This document shows positions 3,361-49,272 of a stretch of 49,272 bases of DNA, in pieces. The stretch covers positions 1 to 49,272 of the forward strand of contig CAJNYT010000219.1 in assembly GCA_905331485.1 (NCBI GenBank), written 5' to 3'. The position numbers and the translations under genes were made by a program. The stretch's first letter is position 1, and every line of letters begins with the position of its first letter. The DNA is from Rotaria socialis (taxonomy: Eukaryota). A model generated the notes under the pieces. That model had not been told where the DNA came from. It worked only from the letters and a program-made list of their open reading frames with translations, and did not search any database.

Positions 3361-3555
3361 CTAAGTTTTGCTCGTCAAAGCTTTGCTCGCATGTTGAATG
3401 TTCTTCTTAACTTTAATGATTGCGTGATGATTGTCTTCAAATGTTTTGTGGTAAATAAGCAAAGCTTTTAAAAAACAATGGAAGGTTTGCGGATAGTTTC
3501 CAGTTGAAAAATGAATACTTCCTGTATTGTTGTAAATAAAATCAATAACAGGGCC
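3361..3555 (-). pseudogene. 3-prime terminal fragment (last 64 codons plus stop) of a TPR-protein gene, truncated at a telomeric tract
   Basis: The minus-strand translation VIDFIYNNTGSIHFSTGNYPQTFHCFLKALLIYHKTFEDNHHAIIKVKKNIQHASKAL aligns with the C-terminus of the ART-TPR protein at 25833-27707 (ATYNNIGSVYLCKGDYAKALENFEIALNIGLKSLPADHEHIQTYRENIKHAKERI). Upstream of this point the ORF is only a translation of the telomeric hairpin at 3559-3620. Confidence 0.7.
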
Positions 3556-3558
3556 TTG

Positions 3559-3620
3559 AGGGTGTGGGGTGTACATATATTTATCACCTATAAATACACA
3601 TCCACACCCACACCCACACC
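3559..3620. repeat. Inverted telomeric-repeat junction
   Basis: G-arm agggtgtggggtgt (3559-3572), 23-bp AT-rich spacer, C-arm acacatccacacccacacccacacc (3596-3620). Confidence 0.85.
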
Positions 3621-4127
3621 AACGATAAAAAAGGATATATAACTGTATAAATTTATCAAACAAGACTCGATGTAATACCATTTGTGTCTGAAACTGTTTT
3701 TACTTTTTTCAGAGAGCTCATATTCTAACCAAGTTTACCATTGTAAATGGTAATTAGCAACAAAGTTTAATAAGGTTATGCCATACATGGTTTTACTCAT
3801 CGATTCAAATAGTTCTCTCTCTCTCTCAAGTTAGATTAGGAAGTTCTTCTGATTAGAATTTGACTTTCTGCGTCGATTTGTACAAGCAGATTTTTCTATA
3901 GCACATAATTAGTTTCAAGTAGTACCGTTTGATCGCTCTTGGGTGTTCCTGTATTAATGGTTTTGAGCGGAACACAAATCAACATTCACATCTACAACCC
4001 ATTCGAAATATTTACAAGCCCTGTTGTTTTTTTTTGTGAAGTTTATAATAGAGGTCAATAACGACGAAAACATCACACACACAATCTTGTTTATTTAAAT
4101 CTTAATAATGTAGATTCTGGTGGGGGT

Positions 4128-4156
4128 TCTTTTCACGCATACCCTCCCCCCCCCCC
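4128..4156. repeat. G5 ... C11 homopolymer inverted pair (same G-first polarity as the telomeric junctions)
   Basis: ggtggggg ttcttttcacgcatacc ctccccccccccc. The C run of 11 is at 4146-4156. It is followed by (CT)n at about 4184-4200. Confidence 0.7.
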
Positions 4157-4279
4157 ACTAAACCCTAAATTTCTGTCTCCCCGTCTCTCTCTCTCTCTCT
4201 GTGTTGTCGATAAATCAATATGTAGTCTTGTTTTTAACAGTAGCATCCAGTCAAAACTAGTGTGATAGTATTTCGGTGA

Positions 4280-5362
4280 TCAAATTGATCTATCTATTAC
4301 TTGGTTGTTTCTTGGGCCTGTACCTATCAGCACCACAGGAATGCCTGTTTCACGTTCCATCATTTCTATATACTGCTTGGATTTTTCTGAAAGCTGATCA
4401 TATTGTGTGATACCAGCATCATCATAGTTGATATACTGTATGAAGTTAACTGCCAATTTGTTAACACCTGTCAGTTTCACTGCACGTTTGATACGATTCA
4501 CATCAATTTCAAATACCCGTCGTAATTTCTTAGTAACAGTTGTTAATTCTTTCGAAGAAAATGTCCCAATAGGGGCACCTGCTCGTTGTTCTACTTCTTC
4601 CCATGTGATTTCTTTTCCACCATCCCCTGAATATGCTTCACCTCCATCAGATTTAGCCATGTCATTAGAAATACGAATTGGATATGTACGAATGACACCA
4701 TAGATATCTCGAATATGTTTCGGAGGAATACCGTTATCTGAAAGTCCTTGCATTGGTGAACATTCTCTGCTGGTACAATGTGGATATTGAAAACCATGAT
4801 TAATACCTAATTCAAAACCTTGTGCTATTTCTAAAATACCTGTTTTTCCTTGTTCCAAATCATCGCAAGCCATTTCAGCTGTGTCTGCCAAAAAATTCGA
4901 CCACTCTCGAATGTCATGCATTAATTTATGATCTGGATGCCGCATTACTTTGAATGCACTAGCTGCACCAACACCTTTAAATGTACTTCCAGAGCGTATA
5001 TTCTCCTTTTCCCAATCACGATGTGTTTGTTGGATAACCGATGCTCTTGGATGAATAAAAAGACGGCCTTTTGCTTTTTCTTTGCCGCCAAGATACTGAT
5101 CAACTTCATTTTCAAGCTGTACCAAATCGATAACAGCGCCAGCACCTATATATAATTTCGTACTATCATTAATTAACGCTTGTGGCAACTGTTGGAAAAC
5201 ATATTTGGTGCCATCTTGTTTTATTACCGTATGACCTGCTTGTACACCATAGCTTTCAATAGCAAAATCATATTTGTGCTTTGTAGCTAAATATCCACCA
5301 ATAAGTCCTTTCCCGCACGATCCAAAGCAGAGATCAAGAATAATATCCAACGATCGTTCCAT
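4280..5362 (-). CDS. Adenylosuccinate synthetase family protein, short form (360 aa), PurA/PurZ-like, intronless
   Basis: Uninterrupted ATG..TGA ORF. By-eye alignment to E. coli PurA (query / PurA):
- LDLCFGSCGKG / LGTQWGDEGKGK (P-loop)
- QAGHT / NAGHT
- GSTFKGVG / GTTGRGIG
- EIAQGFELGINHGFQYPHCTS / [21 protein letters not shown]
- TTVTKKLRR / ATTGRRRR
- IGTGPR / ISTGPD
The P-loop Asp is replaced (GSCGKG). The TKLD guanine-specificity motif aligns to NFIQ. Confidence 0.85.
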   Translation of the reverse strand: MERSLDIILDLCFGSCGKGLIGGYLATKHKYDFAIESYGVQAGHTVIKQDGTKYVFQQLPQALINDSTKLYIGAGAVIDLVQLENEVDQYLGGKEKAKGRLFIHPRASVIQQTHRDWEKENIRSGSTFKGVGAASAFKVMRHPDHKLMHDIREWSNFLADTAEMACDDLEQGKTGILEIAQGFELGINHGFQYPHCTSRECSPMQGLSDNGIPPKHIRDIYGVIRTYPIRISNDMAKSDGGEAYSGDGGKEITWEEVEQRAGAPIGTFSSKELTTVTKKLRRVFEIDVNRIKRAVKLTGVNKLAVNFIQYINYDDAGITQYDQLSEKSKQYIEMMERETGIPVVLIGTGPRNNQVIDRSI

Positions 5363-5819
5363 CTGAATGCGTACCTAAAGTTGAACAAATATACATCATA
5401 TCATATAACAACAGCTATAGTGTTATTATGTGTGTACAATTGTTCTAAATAACAACGTATGATACAATACGAATGAATTCAAGTCGTAACCATTTTTCAT
5501 TATACAAAGCATTGATTGAGAGCTCTCATGTTAGTCATTTAAAAGTATCCAATTTAAAAAATAATGGTCTAAGATGATTACAAGGTAACTAAACAGATCT
5601 ATGTTTTTCTATAGGTTTCATAGGGCCTATTAGGATCTGCTAGAATCAAGCAGAGTCTAAAGGCTCGATTAAACTTCATAGAATCAACTAGCGCCCTCAT
5701 TATATGGATTCTATCTGAGGCTTTCGTGATCCCCTCACCCTAGAGATAATATATGTTGTCTTCTCTTCCATCCTCGTTCTGAAGAGTATTACAGACTCTA
5801 GCAAACCCTGTTAGATCCT

Positions 5820-5829
5820 GGGGGGGGGG
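5820..5829. repeat. G10 homopolymer, inverted partner of the C11 run at 4146-4156
   Basis: cctgggggggggga. Together with 4146-4156 it brackets the PurA-like ORF as 5-prime Cn ... Gn 3-prime. Confidence 0.7.
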
Positions 5830-6470
5830 ACTATTATGACTTATTACATAAATTATATAGAATAGAATTGTTATGGAGTTTATTTGTGCCATTCAGTGAA
5901 AACCAATCTAGAAGCTAATCCCATACGTCACAGCCATCTCATCAGTTTTAATCCAAACAGAAATAAAGCTAAGACGACGAATAATATGAAAACCACAAAG
6001 CTATTTGCATGTAAATATATTACTTTAGAAGCAGTCTCGCGCTTCCCATCTCTACTATGTTTAAAATTATGATATCATCTTTCCGCTGAAAGTTGTTTTG
6101 CAGATTTTTATTGATGCATTTCAAGCAAAAGAAACATTTTTTTTAAAAAGGAATACAAACTGGGTACTATGAAAAGAAAAGTAATCCTACATTTTCTTGT
6201 TATTTCTCGTAAATTCGTTTTGATAACTAGTGTTTTGTCTTCACCTAGCTTGTATCTTTGCTAGACGTTGACATACCTCTTCGTTTGTTCTTTCGGTAGG
6301 AAGCACCTTTATATATATATATAAGTCGATATCTTGGAAATTTTCAGTATATCTACAAAACAAGGGAAAAAATCATGGCTATAATATGGATGGTATTGGC
6401 CAGCCCAGTGCTGGATCAATGTTTATTTATTTTATTTCTTTATGTCACTCTCATCATAATCAATTAGGTA

Positions 6471-6850
6471 TCCGTATCACCAATATCAGTAACTTTATTT
6501 TTATATTTAATTAGACGGGCAATTTTCTTACTCATCGCATTTACCTATTCTTTTTCTTCTTCTCCATTAATAGACAAATATACTATATGTCTTTTACTTT
6601 TACTGACCGAAAACACAACACATGTAACATATGTTATTCGATGTCTATACAGATAATGAGGATAGAAATGCAAAAAAAAGAGAAAGAATTGGGGAATATA
6701 TGCTATCAATTGGGACACTTTCTCTTCTTTTCTCTAGTATATGTGTCTATTAATGGAGAACAAGAAAAATAATAGGTAAATACGATGAGTAAGAAAGTTG
6801 CACCATCATATTAAATAAGAACAAGAAAATTACTGATATAAGCGATACGG
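6471..6850. repeat. Fold-back inverted repeat, arms about 6471-6586 and 6735-6850, spacer about 148 bp, abutting the telomeric junction at 6864
   Basis: The reverse complement of the right arm (tccgtatcgcttatatcagtaatttt...cttactcatcgtatttacctattatttttcttgttctccattaatagacacatatacta) matches the left arm (tccgtatcaccaatatcagtaacttt...cttactcatcgcatttacctattctttttcttcttctccattaatagacaaatatacta). Confidence 0.8.
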
Positions 6851-6863
6851 ACATTTTATCACT

Positions 6864-6958
6864 GGGCGTGGGTGTGGGTGTGTGGATGAAGCAGAGAATA
6901 TGCAACACCCACACCCACACCCACACCCACACCCACACCCACACCCACACCCACACCC
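6864..6958. repeat. Inverted telomeric-repeat junction with the longest tract, (ACACCC)9
   Basis: G-arm gggcgtgggtgtgggtgtgtgga (6864-6886), 18-bp spacer, then nine perfect ACACCC units (6905-6958). Confidence 0.95.
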
Positions 6959-7575
6959 TGGTATTGCACGAAGTCTAGCACACTTCGAAACTTCTAAATG
7001 GTTTCACTCGTTAGTATGATTATAAATGCTTCTTTTGAAAGAGGTGAATAATAAACCCTTCTAATCAAAATATGATATTTACAACTCTAACTCTTAATTC
7101 TGTCTCATTTTTTTATGATGTACATTAAATAGATCAAAAAATGAGCATTGAAAAATATTTTAAAGACAAAAAGAAAATATTATTAAAATTCGAATAAAGA
7201 ACACTTGCCGAATTTAACCTTACAAATTCCACTGTTAAGCCACACATTTGCATTATGTTTGAAGAAAACAAATAAAATTTAAAATGAACATCTGGTTTAT
7301 TGAATATGTGAGTGAGAGAAAAGACAGCGCATAACTTATTTGTTAAACTGATAGATTGAAAAAAAAGAAAACCCTTAAAATGATCACTCTATCAATAAGT
7401 ATATGAATGCAGTGACGAATTCGAAAGTACCAAAAATTGGTAACATGCAGTAGAACGCATAGGCGCAGAAATTATTCAAAAATTGGATAGTCACTACATA
7501 ACAATTTTCGGGATTATATGCAAGCAGGTAACACAAAATATAAACATATCGTAAATTAAAAACACTAATAATAAA

Positions 7576-9954
7576 TTAGACTTCTTTAAATAATATTCCG
7601 TAGGGTCGAACATTCTGTGAATTGTTACACGTCCATATATCTCGATTGTGCTTTGCGATCGAACTATTATTAATTCTCACTTGAAACATAACTTGCAATT
7701 GTCGGCCATTGTATGGTGTTGGCCTAGAGTAGTGTCTACTCCCGGAATATGATGGATTAGGCGATAAATATATGCCTCGACCATGAGCAGAACCATTAAC
7801 AATAGGTATCCCATTACTACCTCCAGCAATTAAACCATTACGTAGTATAGCTAAAGCATTGGCAGTTGCAGTACCATGATAAGCTACAGGCCATGCATCT
7901 TTGCCCTCCGCTAGCCATTCAGCATTTTCATATTTTCCAAGTACTTTAATAGCCTTTCTATACCATCCGCATGGCCTTGTATAAGGTTCTGGTCCACGTT
8001 GAAAAGTTCGACCGGCATCATTTCTTGTTGTAAAATCGTAGTCGTAAGTGCTATCAAGAAACTCTTCATCTAGCATAACACGATTTACAAAACGATTAGT
8101 CCGAGCAGTAGCACTTGAAAAATGTGGAATATAAGCTGCAATTGAACTCTGATTGTATTGATAAAATCGAACGTTTTGATCATCTTCCCATCGATTTATA
8201 TCATTATCAATATTCCAATAACTTAATCGAATACTTTCAGGACATGTATATTCAGATGGTTCATTTATTATTAATAGTGGACAATGCTCTTTTTTATCAC
8301 TAAATTGAATATGATCAGCTTTGAAATGAATAACTGATATAATTCGATTATAATTTTCTTCTAATGTTCCTTTGTCCGGTACATAATCTTCGTTTTTCCA
8401 TACAGTATTTGGTAAGGATTTACTTACTACGGACTTTGATTCTGATTCTTGTGCTATTTTATATTCCATTATTCGAGAAGAATAATACATAACAGCATTA
8501 CTTTCATACATATCAGCCTTTTCACACTGAGGACACTTTATTTTTACAGTAGAATTAGACTCTTGTTTAATGGTTGATGTTAGTTTATCATTTAATCTTT
8601 TACAGCACTGGTAACAAAATAAAGCTGAACAATTTGGATTAAGACATAATCTATGTTTTTCAGGTATTAAACGACAATATAAACATTCTAAAGCCGAAGT
8701 TCCTTCCATTTCAAATTTATCAATAATTTTTGATTTACGGTATTCTGATAATCGAACTTTCTTGTAACATGTTGGACAATGATGTTCATGATTTGTATTA
8801 TCACAACTGGATTCAATACAAATGCGACAAAATACTTGTGTACAATATGGGCATTCTAAATTATCATCATTAAGTTGTGATAAACAATTTAGACATTCAG
8901 GTTTATCTATGAAAATTAATGAAGATGTTGACGGTTTATTAATTAAAGTAGCTGAATTAAAATCCGTTTCAACTGCTTGTGCTAAATTAGTTTCATTGGA
9001 TGGCGTTTCTTTTTTTGAGGATATAATTGGATTTGACTGAGTAGGATTTATTTTCTTAATGTTAACTTTATCAATCTGATTATTCAATTCATTGATTTTT
9101 GTTGATATCTTCATCCAATTGCATGATGATTTTAAATTATCGATCAAGAAATCGTTGCTCCCAATAGAAATTGTTGTTGATTTTTTATTTCCAATTGTTT
9201 GTTTTGCTTGCTGGGCGGATTTAATCACATTGATGGTCTCAACTGGAAACATTAAAATAATTGTATTATTATCCAATCGAGCTTCACATTCATAATTTAT
9301 TATAGCAAATTTATCCTTATTGATGTCTGAAACTTTTTGACAGCGATCACTAGGTTGGACTGCATTAATCTGAGATGACCCTATATCTCCGTCGACGATA
9401 GTATCAGGCTGAATATTAAATTTTAATTGAACAATAGAACCAGGATTAATTCCTAAATCCAACATTGGAATATATGCATTTTTATTTAATGAGTAATATT
9501 TTCCATTAGCCATAATTCCTTGCGCATAGCGACCGTCGCAACATCTTACTTTACAAAATTGAGATAACAATAAACGATCATAGGGTAATGCTATTAATAA
9601 TGGATAATCATATATTTGGACTGATTTGAACATGGCCGTTTTTATTAATTTAATATGTGACACGTCAGCATTAGCTGAAATGAATATTTTTTCTAGTAAT
9701 TCAAAGTAATTTTCTACATTCATTGTAATTTTTTCTGATAAATGATTAGTTTGAATCATTTTACCAATATGTTGACATAATTTATTATATCTGAGTGGAT
9801 GAATTAATTGGGACGAAGGAATAATTCCCATTTTAATTTCAGTTATTGGCCAATATCTGAGATCTTGATCTTTACTAACAGCGCTAATAGGTTTATTATA
9901 ATCAGAATTTTCACTTTCTAATTGATTAGTGTTATCGGCAATTAAATGAAACAT
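7576..9954 (-). CDS. 792-aa protein: two Cys/His zinc-finger modules (RING/IBR-like) plus a C-terminal ADP-ribosyltransferase-fold (H-Y type, PARP/NEURL4-like) domain
   Basis: Single uninterrupted ORF starting at ATG.
- Zinc modules: CLNCLSQLNDDNLECPYCTQVFCRICIESSCDNTNHEHHCPTCYKK and CLYCRLIPEKHRLCLNPNCSALFCYQCCKRL...KCPQCEK.
- C-terminus: RPCGWYRKAIKVLGKYENAEWLAEGKDAWPVAYHGTATANALAILRNGL...AHGRGIYLSPNPSYS...VRPYGILFKEV. This shows the His (xYHGT) and Tyr (GxGIYxS) signatures of the PARP-type ART fold. Confidence 0.65.
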   Translation of the reverse strand: MFHLIADNTNQLESENSDYNKPISAVSKDQDLRYWPITEIKMGIIPSSQLIHPLRYNKLCQHIGKMIQTNHLSEKITMNVENYFELLEKIFISANADVSHIKLIKTAMFKSVQIYDYPLLIALPYDRLLLSQFCKVRCCDGRYAQGIMANGKYYSLNKNAYIPMLDLGINPGSIVQLKFNIQPDTIVDGDIGSSQINAVQPSDRCQKVSDINKDKFAIINYECEARLDNNTIILMFPVETINVIKSAQQAKQTIGNKKSTTISIGSNDFLIDNLKSSCNWMKISTKINELNNQIDKVNIKKINPTQSNPIISSKKETPSNETNLAQAVETDFNSATLINKPSTSSLIFIDKPECLNCLSQLNDDNLECPYCTQVFCRICIESSCDNTNHEHHCPTCYKKVRLSEYRKSKIIDKFEMEGTSALECLYCRLIPEKHRLCLNPNCSALFCYQCCKRLNDKLTSTIKQESNSTVKIKCPQCEKADMYESNAVMYYSSRIMEYKIAQESESKSVVSKSLPNTVWKNEDYVPDKGTLEENYNRIISVIHFKADHIQFSDKKEHCPLLIINEPSEYTCPESIRLSYWNIDNDINRWEDDQNVRFYQYNQSSIAAYIPHFSSATARTNRFVNRVMLDEEFLDSTYDYDFTTRNDAGRTFQRGPEPYTRPCGWYRKAIKVLGKYENAEWLAEGKDAWPVAYHGTATANALAILRNGLIAGGSNGIPIVNGSAHGRGIYLSPNPSYSGSRHYSRPTPYNGRQLQVMFQVRINNSSIAKHNRDIWTCNNSQNVRPYGILFKEV

Positions 9955-11542: not shown

Positions 11543-12551
11543 TTAGAGATCTGAGCTACGTAAACTCCAGAGTTTAATTATCCATTTGTTTGCGATTTCA
11601 TCAAAGTGGCACGATGTTACCTTAGCAGGAAAACCATCGAAAATCAAAAGTTCTTGTTCATCCGGATAATTTGAATATGGGGACATATCCAGAGAGCCGG
11701 TATCTTTTTCGAGGTCAATGACAAAAAGAAAGTTGCTGCCAAAGAATTCGGCCACGTTCGGATTAAGAGTAGTTGAGGTAAACGCCGGTAATTGGATTTT
11801 TCTTTCAGAGACAACGCATAGTCGAAATTGTTCAATTTGTTCGTTAGTCATCGTTGCTCCTCGATATACTATCATATTAGTGGGAGTAAAATTCATAGCT
11901 GAATTCAATAGTACAGCAAATGGGCCGTTTGGCCATCCATTCACCTTCTCGTTGCTTCCCCACCTTTTTCGCTTCGATTATAAATCCTTCCGCTGCCTTT
12001 TCTATCCACATCTCAAGTACTGACTGACAAGTGATACCTTTCTCCCAACCAACGCCGTAATGAGAACAAGCTTCTTGAACAAAATCAGGAGTTGTTGGTT
12101 CAATTTGCCAGTTTATGAAACTGTTCGAAGGCAAAACTGAATCTTCCAAGAAACGTTCCGCTCTTACTCGTTTCTCTCGTTCATCCTTGTTACGATCAAC
12201 TATACGTTTCACTGGCCGTTGTTTCTTTTCGTCATTATTAGAGATTTGCATAGAACGTGCAAAAACGATATGATAGTCGTCGAGAAGAGCTTCTGGTAAG
12301 CCTTGTTGGAATGCTTCTTCGATGATTTCAGTTTCTACATCGGTGTATTTTCGCCATTCAGCAGGTTCTGCAAAACAGAAAGGAAGCGCATTAGATTGCC
12401 ACAGCCACTCTATATACTGCTTGGCAATCAATGCAGTAGTAGTCATATACGCAACGACCAAACGGTAGCAGTAAAGATTAGATGTGATAGTAAAAAGAAA
12501 GAAAATGAAAGATATATTTCGTTTCATTATTGACTCTTTTTGTTGTTCCAT
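11543..12551 (-). CDS. WWE domain plus R-S-E (arginine-type) mono-ADP-ribosyltransferase, 2 exons (12551-11945, 11898-11543)
   Basis: - N-terminal part: YIEWLWQSNALPFCFAEPAEWRKYTDVETEIIEEAFQQG...YHIVFARSMQISNNDEKKQRPVKR matches the WWE pattern (W-W...W-x-Y...E-x-A...Q...R-x-V-K-R).
- C-terminal part: VYRG (Arg), FTSTT (STS) and PDEQELL (ExE) ART motifs.
- The two ORFs overlap in different frames. A 46-nt GTGAAT...TTCAG intron (11899-11944) joins them in phase, giving 963 nt = 320 aa. Confidence 0.8.
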
Positions 12552-17900: not shown

Positions 17901-18720
17901 TATTGTGCAGCGGTAGGCTTTTCATTTAAGGAAATGTGCTCCAACCGCATTAGACCATCCATACGTATAGGCTTCTGTTTTTGTTTACTTTCAATACAAA
18001 CGCCATTAGCTACAGTACGAAATAGCTGCGTAATATCTTTATTTGGCTTTGCTATGTGTTTCAATAGATGTTTGGCGAATAATCCATTTCTATCAGTAGT
18101 ATCACCATCAGAGGCAATTTGATTTGGGCTACATGCAAAGACGACGTAGCTGCCATCCGGTACTTCCATTGCATGTAAACTAATACCTTCGAGCTTCGCT
18201 AAAACAACGATACGTGATACATCTTATACGGCACAATTTTGACTAGTTTTTGCTACCAACCGTTTCTTTGCCTTTTGTTTTTTGGATAGTGTACTCGACA
18301 ACAATCTAGTATAAATACCGTCACAAAGGATGGATTTTTTTGTCTTAATTGATGAAGAGTGCGTTCGGCACAAGTACAATAATCCTCAACATCTTCATCA
18401 GATTTAATTAAATCATCATCTACGTGAGCCAAATATGTTCTGCCATTAACGTGATAGCCATGGCCAGAAAAGTAGAACATAACCAAATCGCCGTCAACGA
18501 TTGTCTCAGCAAAAGCGGATATTGTAGAGGCCATTTGTGACTTTGTAAGATCACGTGCCGTTTTTACCTGAAATTTAATATTTCGTAGCACGTTACTAAG
18601 ATCATTAGCATCATTGATACAATGACGAAGTCTATCTTCAGATTGAATATAATTCTGGTTTCCGATAACTAATGCTATTTTACGGCGAGGCCTTGAGGCA
18701 GTAGAATTCAGAGTAGCCAT
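17900..18720 (-). CDS. Caspase-fold (peptidase C14) protease, paracaspase/metacaspase-like, 2 exons (18720-18261, 18198-17900)
   Basis: - KIALVIGNQNY...NDANDLSNVLRNIKFQVKTARDLTKSQM...LVMFYFSGHGY (catalytic His).
- FILDCCR (catalytic Cys).
- Second exon: SYVVFACSPNQIASDG...NGLFAKHLLKHI.
- A 62-nt GTTGGT...TTTTAG intron (18199-18260) joins the ORFs in phase, giving 759 nt = 252 aa.
- The layout resembles the MALT1 paracaspase core (ALLIGNxxY...YYAGHGY...FLLDMCR). Confidence 0.8.
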
Positions 18721-25832: not shown

Positions 25833-27707
25833 ATGACTTCATTAACGAAAAATCTTGAAGGTCTGACTATTGTATGGCTTGATGTTGATCGTATTCATCA
25901 AAACACCGATGATTATTTTGATACGAAAAATCGTCTACGACAATGCAATAATTATATAGAAATATATCATGATCCAAATGAGTGTATTCATGGTATAATA
26001 GCGAATGGATACGTTTTTCTAATCGTTTCTGGTTCAATCTGCGAAACATTTATTCCGCTGATTTTTGAAATCAAACAGATCGTATTTATTTACGTTCTAT
26101 ATTCGGATAATCAATTGACGGACACCTGTGAACTAAAAACTATTTCAAAACTTCATGGAATATTCTCAAGTAAAAACCAACTTATTGAAAAACTGAAACA
26201 AGACGTCAAATCATATTTGAAGAGTTTGCCACTAACATGTATCGTCAATGAAAAGTCAATTCGTGCTTTAAACAAAGAATATTCTACGTTTATGTGGACT
26301 CAATTGCTTATGGACGTTTTAATTCAAATACCTCAAACAGATCGTGCAAAAATGATGATGTTAGAAGATTGCCGATTGCATTATGCTGATAATAAAGCTC
26401 AATTAGATGATATTAACGAGTTTCAAGAAAAATATGAACCAGACTTTGCAGTTTGGTGGTATACACGTGAGAGTTTCGCATATAAACAATTAAACCAAGC
26501 ACTACGTACACAAGATATTGACATTATTTTTAAATATCAATTTTTTATAAGAGATCTTTATGTACTATTGAAAGAATTATATGAAGAATCTATGCCATCC
26601 TTAGAAGAAATATCGATTGTCTACCGTGGCCAACATATCAATTGTGATGAATTGGAAAAAATAAAAAATAATGTGAACGGTCTTATTTCAATGAATTCAT
26701 TTTTATCAACAACTCGAAACAAGAATCGAGCTTTAATATCCGCCGGTGATGGTTCAAATAGGCCCTCGCTTGAATCCATCTTATTTGAAATTACGATTAA
26801 TAAAAATGTTGCTGCTAAAACTAAACCATTCGCTGACATTACAAAGATGAGTCAATTTGGCAAGGCAGAAGAAGAAATACTATTATCGATTGGAAGTATA
26901 TTCAAGATTCAGTCAGTTGAACAGTTAGCTGAAAATGCTCATGTTTGGGACGTTAAGCTAATATTAAATGAATCAGTGGTGATTAATGAAATAGACATGT
27001 TATTCAATTATTTCAAAATGAATTCAACTACAAGTATATCGAATGTCGGTACATTAGGTTTACTATTAGGAGAGATGGGAGAATATGAAAAAGCGGAAAA
27101 ATATTATCAAATGATGCTTGATGAATTATCAACAGATCATTGCGGAGTTCCAATAATATTAAATAATATGGGAGTATTATACAATGATATGGGTAATGAT
27201 GAAAAAGCATTAGAATATTATAAGAAATCATACGAAAGTTATAAAATGCAAAACGTATCAGAAAATGATCTTCTCTTAGCGAATTTATATCATAATATGG
27301 GTTCATTGTATTATGAAAATGAGTATAATAAAACAGCATTGAAATATTTTAAAAAAGCTTTTAAAATTTGTAATAATAATTCTACGCTACCCAGTCTTTT
27401 ATTATCTGCAACATTATATACAGACGTGAGTGGAATATATCAAGATAATGAAGATTCTGTTAATGCATTGGATCAGTTGCAACACACATTTGAAATCCAA
27501 AAAAGAATTCTACCATCAACTCATTTCAGAATCGCTGCAACATACAATAACATAGGAAGTGTTTATCTTTGTAAAGGAGATTATGCAAAAGCATTAGAAA
27601 ACTTTGAAATAGCCTTGAATATTGGATTAAAATCTTTGCCAGCCGATCATGAACATATTCAAACATATCGTGAAAATATAAAACATGCTAAAGAAAGAAT
27701 AAAGTAA
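25833..27707 (+). CDS. 624-aa R-S-E ADP-ribosyltransferase domain protein with C-terminal TPR repeats
   Basis: Single ATG..TAA ORF.
- ART motifs: VYRGQ (Arg), FLSTT (STS), GKAEEEILL (ExE).
- C-terminal third: repeated TPR-type units (NNMGVLYNDMGNDEKALEYYKKS, YHNMGSLYYENEYNKTALKYFKKA, YNNIGSVYLCKGDYAKALENFEIA).
- An AATAAA at 27698-27703 overlaps the end of the ORF. Confidence 0.85.
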   Translation: MTSLTKNLEGLTIVWLDVDRIHQNTDDYFDTKNRLRQCNNYIEIYHDPNECIHGIIANGYVFLIVSGSICETFIPLIFEIKQIVFIYVLYSDNQLTDTCELKTISKLHGIFSSKNQLIEKLKQDVKSYLKSLPLTCIVNEKSIRALNKEYSTFMWTQLLMDVLIQIPQTDRAKMMMLEDCRLHYADNKAQLDDINEFQEKYEPDFAVWWYTRESFAYKQLNQALRTQDIDIIFKYQFFIRDLYVLLKELYEESMPSLEEISIVYRGQHINCDELEKIKNNVNGLISMNSFLSTTRNKNRALISAGDGSNRPSLESILFEITINKNVAAKTKPFADITKMSQFGKAEEEILLSIGSIFKIQSVEQLAENAHVWDVKLILNESVVINEIDMLFNYFKMNSTTSISNVGTLGLLLGEMGEYEKAEKYYQMMLDELSTDHCGVPIILNNMGVLYNDMGNDEKALEYYKKSYESYKMQNVSENDLLLANLYHNMGSLYYENEYNKTALKYFKKAFKICNNNSTLPSLLLSATLYTDVSGIYQDNEDSVNALDQLQHTFEIQKRILPSTHFRIAATYNNIGSVYLCKGDYAKALENFEIALNIGLKSLPADHEHIQTYRENIKHAKERIK

Positions 27708-43084: not shown

Positions 43085-44470
43085 TTGCAACAAGAATCAT
43101 TAGAGGAATATGAAAAGGCTGATTCAGATAAGGGCAAGGGCACTGACGCTGGCGATGGCAATAGTTTCAGTGGCGATTTACCTTCGCTTCGGTTTACAGA
43201 CACTCGTGGGCCTTCGCCGATGAGTCATGATTTTCCCACTTGGAAGACCACTCTAGATAATGGAAATGAACGCTTAAAAGAACCGACTGGTCTTAATATA
43301 TTTTCGAAATTAGAAGATCAACCGGTACCAATATCTACTGTTTATAACAAACTGGCAGGAAAGAAGAAGAGAGGTAAGGTCATCATTATTATCAAGCTTA
43401 TTACATTATATCCGTTATAGGGTCATTGTCTGCGCCACTATCAGGGCTATCACTCGAACCGCCTCCAAAACAATCAAGTAAGATTTGAATAATAGATTGT
43501 TTGTATACGATCAAGAGTTCCGAATGTTGTACACTTATTTCCGAGAAGAAAACAGCAATTTATGAATTTGATTGAGTTTTAGTGATTTTTGCCCGATATT
43601 TTAAATTCAGAGTTACTGAGACTCCATCGAGTTTACAAAAAGTAATTAAAAGTTAGAAATGTTATGTTTCGACTACTGTCACTGATAAGTAATATTCGTG
43701 TTCTTATTCATATTATTGCTAACCTTTCCCTAACGAAAGTTTGAAGTTTACAAGTTCAGAAAATTACCTTTACATGAATGTGAATAACGGTGAATCTTCC
43801 TGTTACGTATATCTACCCTTACATTCGCACTCTCTTAAATATTTTTGCTGGAGTAGAAAGAACGATGGTAAGAAATTGAGCTATCAAAGTGCGGCACCCT
43901 TATTAGTTTGTTGCCAGCTGTGCACATTAAACATGCTACGTTCTGATTTGCTATCCATGTTAGGCGTTGAATTGGCAGAACCATTCGATTTTTACGGCCT
44001 TATCACTGATACTTCTGCATGGGCTTCTCTTTCTTTTCCCAAGCCACTGTCACCAGACATATCATGTCGAACAATATCATCCTGCACTAATGACAGCTAT
44101 ATGCCATCTCCAATAGCATTAAAACCGAACCCAAGTGTTGGTAAGTTAGAACCACATAAATTTCTCGATTACTTTAATTAATGGATCATGAACATAGAAC
44201 CATCTTTAGAAATGTCGTCATTTGGTGGTAGACACGATAGCATACAAGTTGCTACAAGTGAATCAAAAAGCTCGGAAGAAGCGAATATGTCAACGAAAAA
44301 ATCAGTTCGATACACTAAAGTACGTACATTAAAATGCAAGTTTTACAGAAACATCATCCAATTTTAGGAGCACCGATATGACGATAGAACGATAGACTTT
44401 GCACGTGAAAGTGCGCAACCAAAATCCACGATTTGTAAACAGACAAGAGAATTAGAGACGTGAGTTTTAA
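43085..44470 (+). other. Probable upstream exons (Ser/Pro/Glu-rich, no recognised domain) of the Hsp70-SBD-containing gene
   Basis: Several open segments are bounded by good splice signals. Examples: 43085-43371 ends AAGAGAG|GTAAGG; 43421-43487 encodes GSLSAPLSGLSLEPPPKQS then GTAAGA; and ..GVELAEPFDFYGLITDTS...KPNPSV then GTAAGT at about 44140. I could not build a complete in-phase model. Confidence 0.3.
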
Positions 44471-44578: not shown

Positions 44579-46216
44579 ATTTCGAAGACAATTTGCACTT
44601 AATTTAACGTCCAACATATCTGTCTGTAATCTACTTCTTCTGGACGTATGCCCACTTGGTCTGGGCATCGAAGATATTAAGGGTGAGATGCATACATTGG
44701 TACGCCGTAATACAGTTATTCCAACGCGAACTCAACTTTATCCTATATTCACAAATGCTTATGCCTATCAGGCAACAGCTACCATTCGAATATTTGAAGG
44801 TGAACATTATCTCACAAAATACAATGTATATAGTGTTCTAACTTCATAAATTTTATTTTCTAATCGTCCTCTATTGCAGAGATTATTGGGCGAGTTTAGT
44901 CTTCCTGGTCTAACAAGCAACTTCTCTGCTCAGACACTCGAAATAGCTATTCGTATGGATATTGATGCTAATGGGATACTTCATGTCGATGCTGAAGAAG
45001 CACGTTCGGGCGCGAAAGCTTCGTTTATTCTTGGATCTGATCAGCAAAGTTCGACAATTACTCAGATATTTCATACCATCGCTAAATGCCTTTTATATTT
45101 ATCTAGGATTGAGCAAAAATGATATTGAGCGACATATTGCATATGTAGAAAGTGATGCAAATGTTGCAGCTAAATCTGGTTAGTGTGTAAAAAGGATAAA
45201 TGATGTTCAATTATTGTTATTTTGTAGTTCATGATCACAAACCCAATGATCGATTGTATTTAGTTCGTATTATGTCATCTTTTCATAGTTCGATTGTTCA
45301 CTTTTTCTGTTTTTTCTCAGCTGGCTGGCCAAATTACATCTGTAATACGTGACTTTTCTGGTGAACTTATAACATCATTCGGTAATTTGTCCTTCGTTGT
45401 TGTTTGAAAGATATAGCGAAAATGGTGTATGAATTCAGGTCAAACAATTGGTGCTCCACTTCTCATTCAACTGAAAAATGTTCGATTTTCAAAAACGTTA
45501 ACTGAAGAGCTCATCAAAATTCAATCTGAGGTAATTGATACTATTTTCAAGTCTTATTACCAAATCATTGTTTTGCATTTGATTCGAACATAGGACGGTT
45601 CATTTACGTTGAATAAAGATTTAGCTGATATACTTCATGTCAATGTTGATATTTTCGATGGCCTAGAACAATACTTACGCGCACTAGGTTTTAACTCGCT
45701 CGGTAAGATCGTAAGATTTATTATAGAGATATGACCTTTAATTTTTTTTTAGCTTTGAACACACAAAATGAAATTCTTCGTTTAATTGGTACAGGTGTCA
45801 TTCTGTTTTGGCTCGCTCTTCAAATGCAAGACTCACCACAAAACACGTGTCCATTTTTATTTAACATTGAACAAATCAAAGTGAATTGATTTTTTCCAAT
45901 CTTTGCAATTTATATCCTACTCTCTTTATGTTGCCACAAAACACGTGTCCATTTTTATTTAACATTGAACAAATCAAAGTGAATTGATTTTTTCCAATCT
46001 TTGCAATTTATATCCTACTCTCTTTATGTTGCTAAGGCTTTTCTCTGCAATCATTTATCTGCTAACACAAGTGAAAAACTTGACAAAGCGATCGGATTCT
46101 ATCAACAAATAAGTCAACGTAATCGTATCTATTGTAAACAATTAGAATTGAGCGATTCATCATGGGACATGTTTATTCAACGTATAGTTATCGGCATCGA
46201 TCATGGCGATAACTAA
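44579..46216 (+). CDS. Multi-exon gene segment: Hsp70 substrate-binding-domain-like module followed by a PARP4/VWA5A-type C-terminal region
   Basis: - Exon 44579-44825: ..SNISVCNLLLLDVCPLGLGIEDIKGEMHTLVRRNTVIPTRTQLYPIFTNAYAYQATATIRIFEGEHYLTKYN.
- Exon 44880-45048: RLLGEFSLPGLTSNFSAQTLEIAIRMDIDANGILHVDAEEARSGAKASFILGSDQQ.
- Exon 45107-45178: LSKNDIERHIAYVESDANVAAKS.
- These three match Hsp70 DLLLLDVxPLSLGIE...RNTTIPTK...YEGER...LLGxFxLxGIPPAPRGxPQIEVTFDIDANGIL...LSKEEIERM.
- Further exons (about 45289 or 45321)-45381, 45439-45530, 45594-45702, 45753-45880 and 46037-46216 encode ..KIQSEDGSFTLNKDLADILHV...LRLIGTGVILFWLALQ... and the stop.
- The junction after 45178 is unresolved. Confidence 0.65.
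45837..46032. repeat. Perfect 98-bp tandem duplication (45837-45934 and 45935-46032)
   Basis: cacaaaacacgtgtccatttttatttaacattgaacaaatcaaagtgaattgattttttccaatctttgcaatttatatcctactctctttatgttgc occurs twice back to back without a mismatch. It covers the last 44 nt of an exon, its GTGAAT donor and 54 nt of intron. Confidence 0.95.
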
Positions 46217-48315: not shown

Positions 48316-49272
48316 TTACAACCATTCTGGAAAGCGTGCTTGGGTCTCTAAATATAGTTTATCGAGTCGTTCAATTTCTGTCAGTTGTGACTTGCTGGGT
48401 TTAATTAACAACACCTTGTAATCAAAATATCGCAAAATAACCAAATCAGTTAAGCGTTTTACCCGCGATAAGGGTACATAGACTGCAGCAATATCATCGG
48501 TTTCATTTGGCAGTTTTAAATCAATCACAACTTTATTCAATGTTTGACCTTGACTCTTGTGTGTTGTAATGCAATAAGCTGGTACAAGTGGTAATGCGCG
48601 CCGTTTAATTGATAACAGTGTTTTTCTATTTGATTTTGGTTTCTTATCTTTTGGAAGCATATCGCCTATATCGACTCGAAATGTTTGTTCCATTACCGGT
48701 ATTGGAATCAGTTTTGGCTGAAGTTGTTCTAAATTGCATTCGATCGTTGATTTGCTAATTTCCACCAAGGCGTACAGAGGTCGATGGACATATCGTGCAT
48801 TCTTGGAAAATTCTTCTGAAATAATATCAGTTGACACGGAATCTTCCTGGTAGACAAGCTGCCGAAAGATTCCGTTCACACCGTTGATAAGACCCAATTC
48901 AATTGCAATATTTTGCGTTAAAATTACAGGCATTCCAGGAACAAGAGGTAATAGACCTGGTAGATGCTCTGTTTTACTATCAGATAATTCTAATCATTTT
49001 TTAATAAGTGCTCGATCTTCAATTGGTTTGCCTTTGCAGGTGTCTTGGGCAATGCATACTATAGGTGTCTGTCCCACTTGTTGTGCTTTGTGACTAAGTG
49101 CCTTGTGATTTAATTGTGTTCGTATTTCGTTACGAAATACAAGAATCGGAGCCTAAAATGATGAAGATAGTGAATTGTCTAAATCTAGAAAAACAAATTT
49201 ACTTTATTCCATGGTGAATCACTTAACAAGGGTACGGAAGATTGCCCCACTATTCGTGTTAACAATAATTCG
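48316..49272 (-). pseudogene. Pif1-family (Helitron-type) helicase C-terminal region, interrupted by an in-frame TGA; runs off the window edge
   Basis: - Minus strand: ..APILVFRNEIRTQLNHKAL...KGKPIEDRALIKK*LELSDSKTEHLPGLLPLVPGMPVILTQNIAIELGLINGVNG...LPLVPAYCITTHKSQGQTLNKVVIDL...AVYVPLSRVKRLTDLVIL (Pif1 motifs TxHKSQG and YVAxSR).
- The in-frame TGA is at 48994-48996.
- A candidate 75-nt intron is at 49153-49227. Confidence 0.7.

Follow-up and report, generated by a model that had tools for sequence, protein, structure and literature searches.

An Hsp70 substrate-binding domain without an ATPase domain in a PARP4-like gene of the bdelloid rotifer Rotaria socialis

Genes and features of the locus

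We analyzed a 49,272-nt stretch of the Rotaria socialis genome (contig CAJNYT010000219.1, positions 1 to 49,272; hereafter the window), which consists of AT-rich eukaryotic DNA with short, GT-AG introns. Three plus-strand exons encode a substrate-binding domain (SBD) of the Hsp70 type that is not accompanied by a nucleotide-binding (ATPase) domain (NBD). These exons lie downstream of exons for PARP, VIT and VWA domains and upstream of exons for a MINT-like domain (Table 1). Taken over all of its parts, the explanation that we consider likely is that the locus is a bdelloid PARP4 paralogue with a domesticated Hsp70 SBD. The identity and domain architecture of this SBD-PARP4 family can be stated with high confidence.

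The Hsp70-derived domain without an NBD is real. Its exons have AG/GT boundaries, and a common frame connects them with one another, with five upstream and with six downstream exons; splicing of the 14 GT-AG exons gives an intact open reading frame (ORF) of 621 codons that ends at 46216. The only Pfam match of the 621-aa product is HSP70 (E=4.8e-26, 91.6 bits, residues 268-414). This match is confined to profile positions 376-518 of 599, which comprise the interdomain linker, SBD-beta and the start of the lid, and includes no NBD positions. The SBDs of BiP and Hsc70 are matched at E ~3e-27 (phmmer against the PDB), and identity to HSPA1A and BiP is 40-47%. The original prediction had placed the three exons exactly (span 44579-45178), and all of the motifs that it quoted are present (LLLLDVCPLGLGIE, RNTVIPT, FEGEHY, LLGEFSL, MDIDANGILHV and LSKNDIERH). 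The replacement of GIPPAPRGVPQIEV by GLTSNFSAQTLEIA that it reported is also correct, based on alignment to DnaK, HSPA8 and BiP. Its claim that there is no ATPase domain holds as well: two full-length BiPs, compared by tblastn with all 49 kb of the window, matched positions 44619-45098 only, and the 1.5 kb upstream of the SBD contain only low-complexity Ser/Pro/Glu-rich exons.

The linker of the window protein reads NLLLLDV, and L-L-x-D-V is invariant or nearly so across the family. The boundaries of the second SBD exon are shared with A. ricciae and with other Rotaria homologues. Hsp70 homology ends with the third SBD exon, after approximately 17 residues of lid helix A. Lid helices B-E are absent, and a spacer and the MINT-like domain follow. 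The original prediction overlooked a 35-nt micro-exon (45228-45262) before the next exon. This micro-exon was found by tblastn of homologues P0001, P0014 and P0021; it restores the frame and has a 36-nt counterpart in homologues. An acceptor at 45289 following the exon that ends at 45178 also keeps the frame, yet was rejected because homologues show the micro-exon instead.

Exons for the PARP, VIT and VWA domains are found 6-11 kb upstream of the SBD exons on the same strand. The PARP domain (Pfam, 3.4e-12) has as its best PDB match human PARP4 (8sx1, E=5e-50, vs. 4e-21 for PARP2), and the H-Y-E triad is present in the catalytic domain. By eye, the N-terminus encoded at 33101-33500 looks like a BRCT domain; this region has no Pfam or PDB sequence match. 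Pfam searches with the C-terminal domain gave no match for the window product or for 12 family members; PF26156 is precomputed on this domain of the homologues. The family profile of the region following the SBD (A3) has only one significant PDB match, human PARP4 (11jf_P/9bw6, residues 1574-1698, E=3.5e-6), and the C-terminal domain is thus a homologue of the PARP4 MINT domain. The combination of PARP, VIT, VWA and MINT defines PARP4, so the SBD sits in a PARP4 paralogue. The original prediction had described a C-terminus of PARP4/VWA5A type and a chaperone module in an unrelated gene; both descriptions stand, and the host is PARP4 itself. VWA5A shares with the window gene the VIT, VWA and PF26156-type C-terminal domains, but it has neither a PARP domain nor an Hsp70 module. 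The window gene is PARP4-like because a PARP4-type catalytic domain is encoded upstream.

Two local irregularities were noted within the host gene. A perfect 98-nt tandem duplication (45836..46031, plus strand) copies exon 45753-45880 at its 3' end together with the donor and the intron. It yields a second, unused copy of the donor, and the first donor keeps the frame. The sequence is single-copy (blastn) at the related loci of R. magnacalcarata (L003) and Rotaria sp. Silwood1 (L011), so the duplication is very recent. In addition, approximately 510 nt (36600-37114) interrupt the VWA-coding region at a point where the flanks are contiguous in a paralogous R. magnacalcarata locus (L004). An additional intron or an insertion could account for this.

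Table 1. Features of the PARP4-like locus in the window
Feature	Coordinates	Strand	Description	Basis
PARP4 N-terminal half	33101..38722	+	candidate start MKPTTT at 33101	
PARP regulatory/catalytic region	34308-35305	+	H (LFHGS 34813), Y (GIYFSD 34989), E (DNEYAIY 35282)	
VIT	~35540-36400	+		Pfam 4.8e-33
VWA	~36445-37500	+		Pfam 1.5e-10
Conserved tail after VWA	38185-38639	+		
Micro-exon X1	38700-38722	+		
Linker exon X2	38942..39003	+	DLIRMLGAGSKDLTTVEQMDK; window-specific GT donor at 39004	alignment with L011 and exon map of P0129; reading frames
Calmodulin-like exons	39969-40065, 40117-40194, 41402-41543, 41596-41675	+	EF-hands 1-3 and half of EF-hand 4	
Disordered spacer	43047-43373, 43421-43477, 43964-44140, 44198-44319, 44368-44459	+	five Ser/Pro/Glu-rich exons	
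SBD exon 1	44579..44825	+	end of spacer, interdomain linker NLLLLDV and first half of SBD-beta, to ...FEGEHYLTKYN	GT-AG, frame, Pfam HSP70 and PDB matches, alignment to DnaK/HSPA8/BiP
SBD exon 2	44880..45048	+	second half of SBD-beta, RLLGEFSL...MDIDANGILHVDAEE...SDQQ	
SBD exon 3	45107..45178	+	start of lid helix A (RLSKNDIERHIAYVESD...); Hsp70 homology stops here	
Micro-exon	45228..45262	+	35 nt, VHDHKPNDRLYL; spacer between SBD and MINT-like domain	
MINT-like domain	45321-45381, 45439-45530, 45594-45702, 45753-45880, 46037-46216 (includes stop)	+	five exons, all-alpha	

Distribution, selection and origin of the SBD

The original prediction suggested a search for the same architecture in other rotifers. 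It was found in Rotaria, Adineta and Didymodactylos, and we are thus dealing with an old family rather than a local accident; the insertion must be older than the split of the three genera. Approximately 26 Rotaria and Adineta proteins combine an SBD-only HSP70 match with PF26156, and none of them has an NBD. The family comprises at least two paralogue clades, distinguished by DVCPLGLGIE and DVTPLSLGIE. PARP-VIT-VWA-tail exons occur directly upstream of SBD-MINT, on the same strand, at L004, L008 (A. steineri), L009 (Rotaria sp. Silwood2) and L011, the last of which is colinear with the window, PARP4 half included. In A. steineri the annotated boundary between two genes coincides with a run of Ns, and the low-complexity ORF continues across it. 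The tail, spacer, SBD and MINT exons of A. ricciae form one compact gene with introns of 45-95 nt and the exon boundaries seen in the window. In D. carnosus all of the domains are encoded in a single 2098-aa prediction (P0298), with PARP at 267-443, VIT at 502-612, VWA at 754-912, a long disordered region, HSP70 (profile positions 381-526) at 1776-1923 and a MINT-like end. A profile was also run exhaustively against 1.8 billion representative sequences and returned 49 proteins at E<=1e-30, and the named ones that were checked are all from bdelloids. No SBD-PARP4 architecture was found outside of bdelloids in this search of representatives, in which long proteins with an oddly placed SBD proved to be tandem or mis-fused ordinary Hsp70s.

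Some features of the related loci were recorded in passing. The spacer of the D. carnosus protein contains heptads resembling those of the RNA polymerase II C-terminal domain (residues ~1290-1320, PTSPTYSPTSPTYSPTSPTYS). A spacer motif, R[FYL]TDTR.[DP]E, occurs in most paralogues, including that of D. carnosus (seen in P0298, P0008, P0017, P0020 and P0021). Its counterpart in the window is LRFTDTRGPSP (43190-43210); L003 has lost the motif by deletion, and L011 has a changed form of it. The L011 gene model at 3528-9830 fuses N6_N4_Mtase and Chromo domains with the PARP domain of a PARP4 paralogue; the alignment to the window starts at 32819. The methyltransferase and chromodomain part of this model resembles the bdelloid N4-cytosine methyltransferase, and the window is not colinear with it.

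The SBD is under purifying selection. The ratio of nonsynonymous to synonymous substitution rates (dN/dS; NG86, 145 codons) is 0.17-0.32 in all eight comparisons, and neutrality is rejected in binomial tests with p = 7e-4 to 9e-11. Compared with L003, the closest relative, the SBD of the window has dN 0.038, dS 0.147 and omega 0.26. Values for the MINT part are 0.24-0.53. The spacer is near-neutral, with substitutions distributed equally over codon positions, and its frame is kept, with indels that are multiples of 3 (vs. L003, L011 and L005). Selection has thus maintained the module from a time that precedes the divergence of Didymodactylos, Adineta and Rotaria.

Residues of the peptide-binding pocket and arch are kept (I401, F426, A429, Q433, I438 and I472 in DnaK numbering), and the equivalent of V436 is A, V or T in the family. 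D431, R445 and R467, the DnaK SBD-beta residues in ionic contact with the lid, are all replaced (by A, by H and by A, S or E, respectively). Loop L5,6 (PPAPRG) is rewritten, to GLTSNFSAQTLEIAI in the second SBD exon of the window, as are L1,2 and L3,4, and two residues are inserted before beta3. The sequences FTNA[YF]A.Q, EGEH.LTKYN and NFA..TL.I.I are family-wide synapomorphies common to the three genera. Structure prediction with AlphaFold2 (AF2) from a deep alignment gave eight strands and helix A, with predicted local distance difference test (pLDDT) values of 80-96 for the SBD; a helix at 143-154 in homologue P0005 corresponds to the start of helix A. A prediction from an 18-sequence family alignment was poor (pLDDT 57), and the deep alignment rescued the SBD only. 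Foldseek comparison of the first AF2 model of the SBD with solved SBDs gave a TM-score of ~0.7 and a root-mean-square deviation of ~3 Å, and among its top matches are oligomeric forms of lid-truncated BiP (7a4u/7a4v, 43% identity).

The least derived copy of the SBD, that of D. carnosus, scores highest against HSPA1A (117.5 bits), followed by BiP (105.5), mortalin (97) and DnaK (85). Thus, the donor was probably a eukaryotic, cytosolic Hsp70, and a bacterial transfer is not indicated. An origin from BiP, at which DVCPL and phmmer had hinted, was not upheld by the D. carnosus copy. The original prediction had proposed exon shuffling. That the module resides in a new host was correct. Classical exon shuffling is not supported as the mechanism, as the introns flanking the module have asymmetrical phases (2 and 1).

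One gene or two

The first spacer exon begins at 43047 in phase 1. A stop lies five codons upstream in the same frame, and the exon contains no in-frame ATG before codon ~58; an upstream coding exon is therefore required. Three splices would keep the frame: 38722 (X1) to 43047, 39003 (X2) to 39969 and 41675 to 43047. The phases of the latter two also hold in L011. By this route the tail exon 38548-38639, X1, X2, the four calmodulin-like exons and the spacer, SBD and MINT exons form a stop-free chain of 2442 nt. The calmodulin-like exons share their frame with X2 on the upstream side and with exon 43047 on the downstream side. They have no established initiator-Met exon of their own (an ATG-only exon is possible at 39295), and we found no terminal exon or stop for them in the window; read-through truncates EF-hand 4. 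The same arrangement occurs in Rotaria sp. Silwood1 (L011) and, within the reach of the contig, in D. carnosus (L010). Fusions of VWA and EF-hand domains are predicted in two Rotaria species and in D. carnosus, and one A. vaga gene model unites PARP, VIT, VWA and EF-hand domains. A calmodulin-like EF-hand module may be a further part of the window protein. We slightly favor a single polypeptide with PARP4, (calmodulin-like), spacer, SBD and MINT parts.

The alternative is that PARP4 is split in the window and its closest relatives, such that the SBD-MINT part, with the spacer and possibly the calmodulin-like exons, is transcribed separately from PARP, VIT and VWA and forms a free adaptor. We regard this as a possibility of somewhat better than one in three, and several points that count against a single gene favor it. 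Annotation pipelines divide most SBD-PARP4 loci into two or three genes. L003 retains an open and selected SBD-MINT unit with no PARP-VIT-VWA within 10 kb. This orthologous locus (9533-9740 and 11700-11790) is colinear with the window, at 87-93% nucleotide identity, only from inside the calmodulin intron onward, and unrelated minus-strand genes (SH3, Nup98, B56) lie upstream of the breakpoint. In its first spacer exon, TCA has become a nonsense codon (TGA) within the 5' portion, and 129 nt are deleted in frame. The missing PARP4 half and the nonsense codon together imply that the 3' unit may be expressed alone. In the window, the second, ancestral linker exon (~39020-39140; LGEVPDFTGELF...NMKITVR in L011) is open in L011 but contains five in-frame stops (TGA TGA TAA, TAA, TAA), and its 60-nt intron is lost. 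An approximately 140-nt block that is conserved among paralogues lies upstream of 43047 and is a possible internal promoter or 5' exon. Finally, an A. vaga gene model combines PARP, VIT, VWA and EF-hand domains with no Hsp70 match.

The need for a coding exon upstream of 43047 counts against a separate transcript. Between 41.7 and 43.05 kb we found no convincing ATG coding exon, only a short ORF at ~42.83 kb and the conserved block. The three independent junctions are frame-compatible, two of them also in L011, the calmodulin-like part lacks its own terminal exon or stop, and the paralogues without calmodulin-like exons are clearly single genes.

Three further observations concern this intergenic or intronic region. 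An A-to-G change upstream of the decayed linker exon created a strong phase-0 donor (AAG/GTAAGA), and X2 can thereby bypass the decayed exon. The conserved block is non-coding (42820-42960; atatatggattattcttatatcgaattg...gcagctgtagtcagcgaggaagagtaattaattt) and is conserved in the window, L003, L011 and L005 beyond the level of the neighboring spacer exon; an internal promoter, a 5' exon and a splicing element are possible identities for it. An inverted repeat (42532-42595 and 42633-42696; 64 nt, 89% complementary, 37-nt loop) resembles a miniature inverted-repeat transposable element and is also present in L003 and L011.

Possible role of the SBD in PARP4

The window module shares with canonical Hsp70s (HSPA1A/HSPA8, BiP, DnaK; PF00012) the linker, the eight-stranded SBD-beta, the pocket and the start of helix A. 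Unlike these, it has no NBD, no lid helices B-E and no EEVD or KDEL tail. With neither NBD nor lid, and with the lid contacts replaced, the SBD cannot undergo an ATP-driven chaperone cycle and is expected to act like engineered lidless SBDs. Its boundaries (linker, SBD-beta and part of helix A) are those of lid-truncated or isolated SBDs such as BiP 7a4u/7a4v, DnaK 1dkx and Hsc70 7hsc. Constructs of this type need no nucleotide for peptide binding and have a tendency to capture their own linker or tail. They are laboratory fragments, whereas the window module is natural, selected and fused into another protein. To our knowledge, natural proteins with an Hsp70 SBD but no ATPase domain are essentially undescribed.

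The PARP4 paralogue with a domesticated SBD probably arose and may function as follows. In a bdelloid ancestor, a copy of an Hsp70 SBD-beta was placed between the disordered spacer and the MINT domain of PARP4, bringing with it the LLLLD linker and the first lid helix and leaving behind the ATPase domain and the remainder of the lid. In this position the SBD would clamp peptides with neither lid nor nucleotide and exchange them rapidly. Located ~60 residues from the vault anchor, it could tether extended hydrophobic segments of clients or partners to PARP4. This would probably occur inside the vault, during the response to radiation or desiccation that induces PARP4-like and major vault protein (MVP) genes. 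An alternative outcome would be that clients are presented to the ADP-ribosyltransferase. We put the clamp mechanism at a little short of an even chance.

Some evidence argues for caution about this role. Peptide binding is predicted from conserved residues, and the rim of the cleft is rewritten (EDI[KH]G.M, AYAYQ), so that peptide specificity may have changed considerably. The C-terminal domain is homologous to MINT, AF2 confidence for it is low, and its binding to the vault is putative. The MINT domain anchors human PARP4 to MVP (PMC12280208). Of the four MVP-contact residues of the human domain, three differ in the window family (K1618 is N, R1689 is Q and Q1682 is variable) and only S1614 is kept.

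Another possibility is that PARP4 fills the cleft with a sequence of its own, either the LLLL linker or an LY[ML]L segment, in cis or in trans. In that case the SBD would mediate self-association or have a structural role, so that PARP4 is clustered or compacted. The almost invariant LLLLD linker, which is retained with no NBD on which to dock, is consistent with this, as is the presence of lid-truncated oligomeric BiP among the top structural matches. So too is an L-Y-x-L-x-G segment ~25 residues past helix A that is nearly invariant in Rotaria and Adineta. Against this reading, the D. carnosus protein lacks the segment, and none of the structural models, in which AF2 confidence outside of the SBD is low, shows the cleft occupied. 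We consider self-binding rather unlikely, at under one chance in three, and it is in any case compatible with the binding of clients.

Human PARP4 (vault PARP; BRCT-WGR-PARP-VIT-VWA-disordered region-MINT; 8sx1, 9bw6) and the window gene share the order PARP, VIT, VWA, spacer and MINT-like domain. The window gene differs in the SBD-beta inserted ~60 residues before MINT and, in this paralogue, in the calmodulin-like EF-hands that follow the VWA tail; BRCT is undetectable by sequence. As in the setting of human PARP4, bdelloids have MVP genes, and these are co-induced with PARP4-like genes. The cellular role of PARP4, like that of the vault particle, is still poorly understood. The position of the SBD next to the vault anchor raises the ideas of client recruitment to a mono-ADP-ribosyltransferase or to the vault lumen, and of Hsp70-type peptide binding without nucleotide. 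The family is also a natural experiment that could reveal which SBD residues matter without lid and NBD. As a long shot, bdelloid vaults could be lined, via PARP4, with lidless Hsp70 SBDs, one paralogue carrying a Ca2+-sensing calmodulin module. While the animal recovers from desiccation or irradiation, such a particle might work without ATP as a holdase or a sequestration cage, or deliver unfolded proteins to the mono-ADP-ribosyltransferase. If true, the vault, long an enigma, would have a defined task in the proteostasis of an animal that tolerates extreme conditions.

In A. vaga, genes with this architecture belong to the set that responds to radiation and desiccation with strong induction. 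The model FUN_013713-T1 has PF00012, PF00644, PF08487 and PF13768 and PARP4 as its best match, and is classed under base excision repair as 'PARP2_3_4' (PMC10809525, Table S8). Its log2 fold change is 4.5 (~23-fold) at 2.5 h post irradiation, with a false discovery rate of 4e-94 (PMC10809525). A second A. vaga model has the same four domains, and MVP genes are co-induced with the PARP4-like genes (PMC10809525). We found no description of this architecture in the literature on bdelloid PARP4 and on NBD-less Hsp70 SBD fusions. The domain combination is bdelloid-wide and visible in public annotation tables, yet apparently undescribed.

The two remaining explanations fare poorly. The original prediction had allowed that the SBD is a degraded Hsp70 fragment fused to a neighboring gene; a decaying fragment, or an artefact of prediction or assembly beside a PARP4/VWA5A-like gene, might be suspected from the altered SBD motifs and from the local scars in the window (the 98-nt duplication and the decayed linker exon). 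We consider this very improbable in view of the intact 621-codon ORF over 14 exons, the dN/dS values of the SBD, the identical exon structure in Adineta and Rotaria, the synapomorphies and homologues in three bdelloid genera, and the expression and induction of the A. vaga genes. An ordinary Hsp70 with its ATPase domain in upstream exons, for which we found no supporting point, is practically dismissed by the BiP search of the window, by the spacer, calmodulin-like and PARP-VIT-VWA identity of the upstream exons and by the lack of NBD profile positions in any of the ~26 homologues.

Several other ORFs in the window were read by eye. On the plus strand, an intronless ORF (25833-27707, 624 aa) encodes an R-S-E ADP-ribosyltransferase (ART) signature (VYRG...STT...EEEIL) followed by TPR repeats. 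Minus-strand ORFs include a smaller ART-like pair (11543-12551) and a 792-aa ORF (7576-9954) with a PARP-like C-terminus (YHGT...GIYLSP). Also on the minus strand are four intronless ORFs that resemble adenylosuccinate synthetase (4280-5362), a caspase-like peptidase (18253-18720), a UDP-glycosyltransferase (28479-29555) and the C-terminal part of a PIF1/Helitron-type helicase (48316-48933). Some of these four may be horizontally acquired or transposon-derived.

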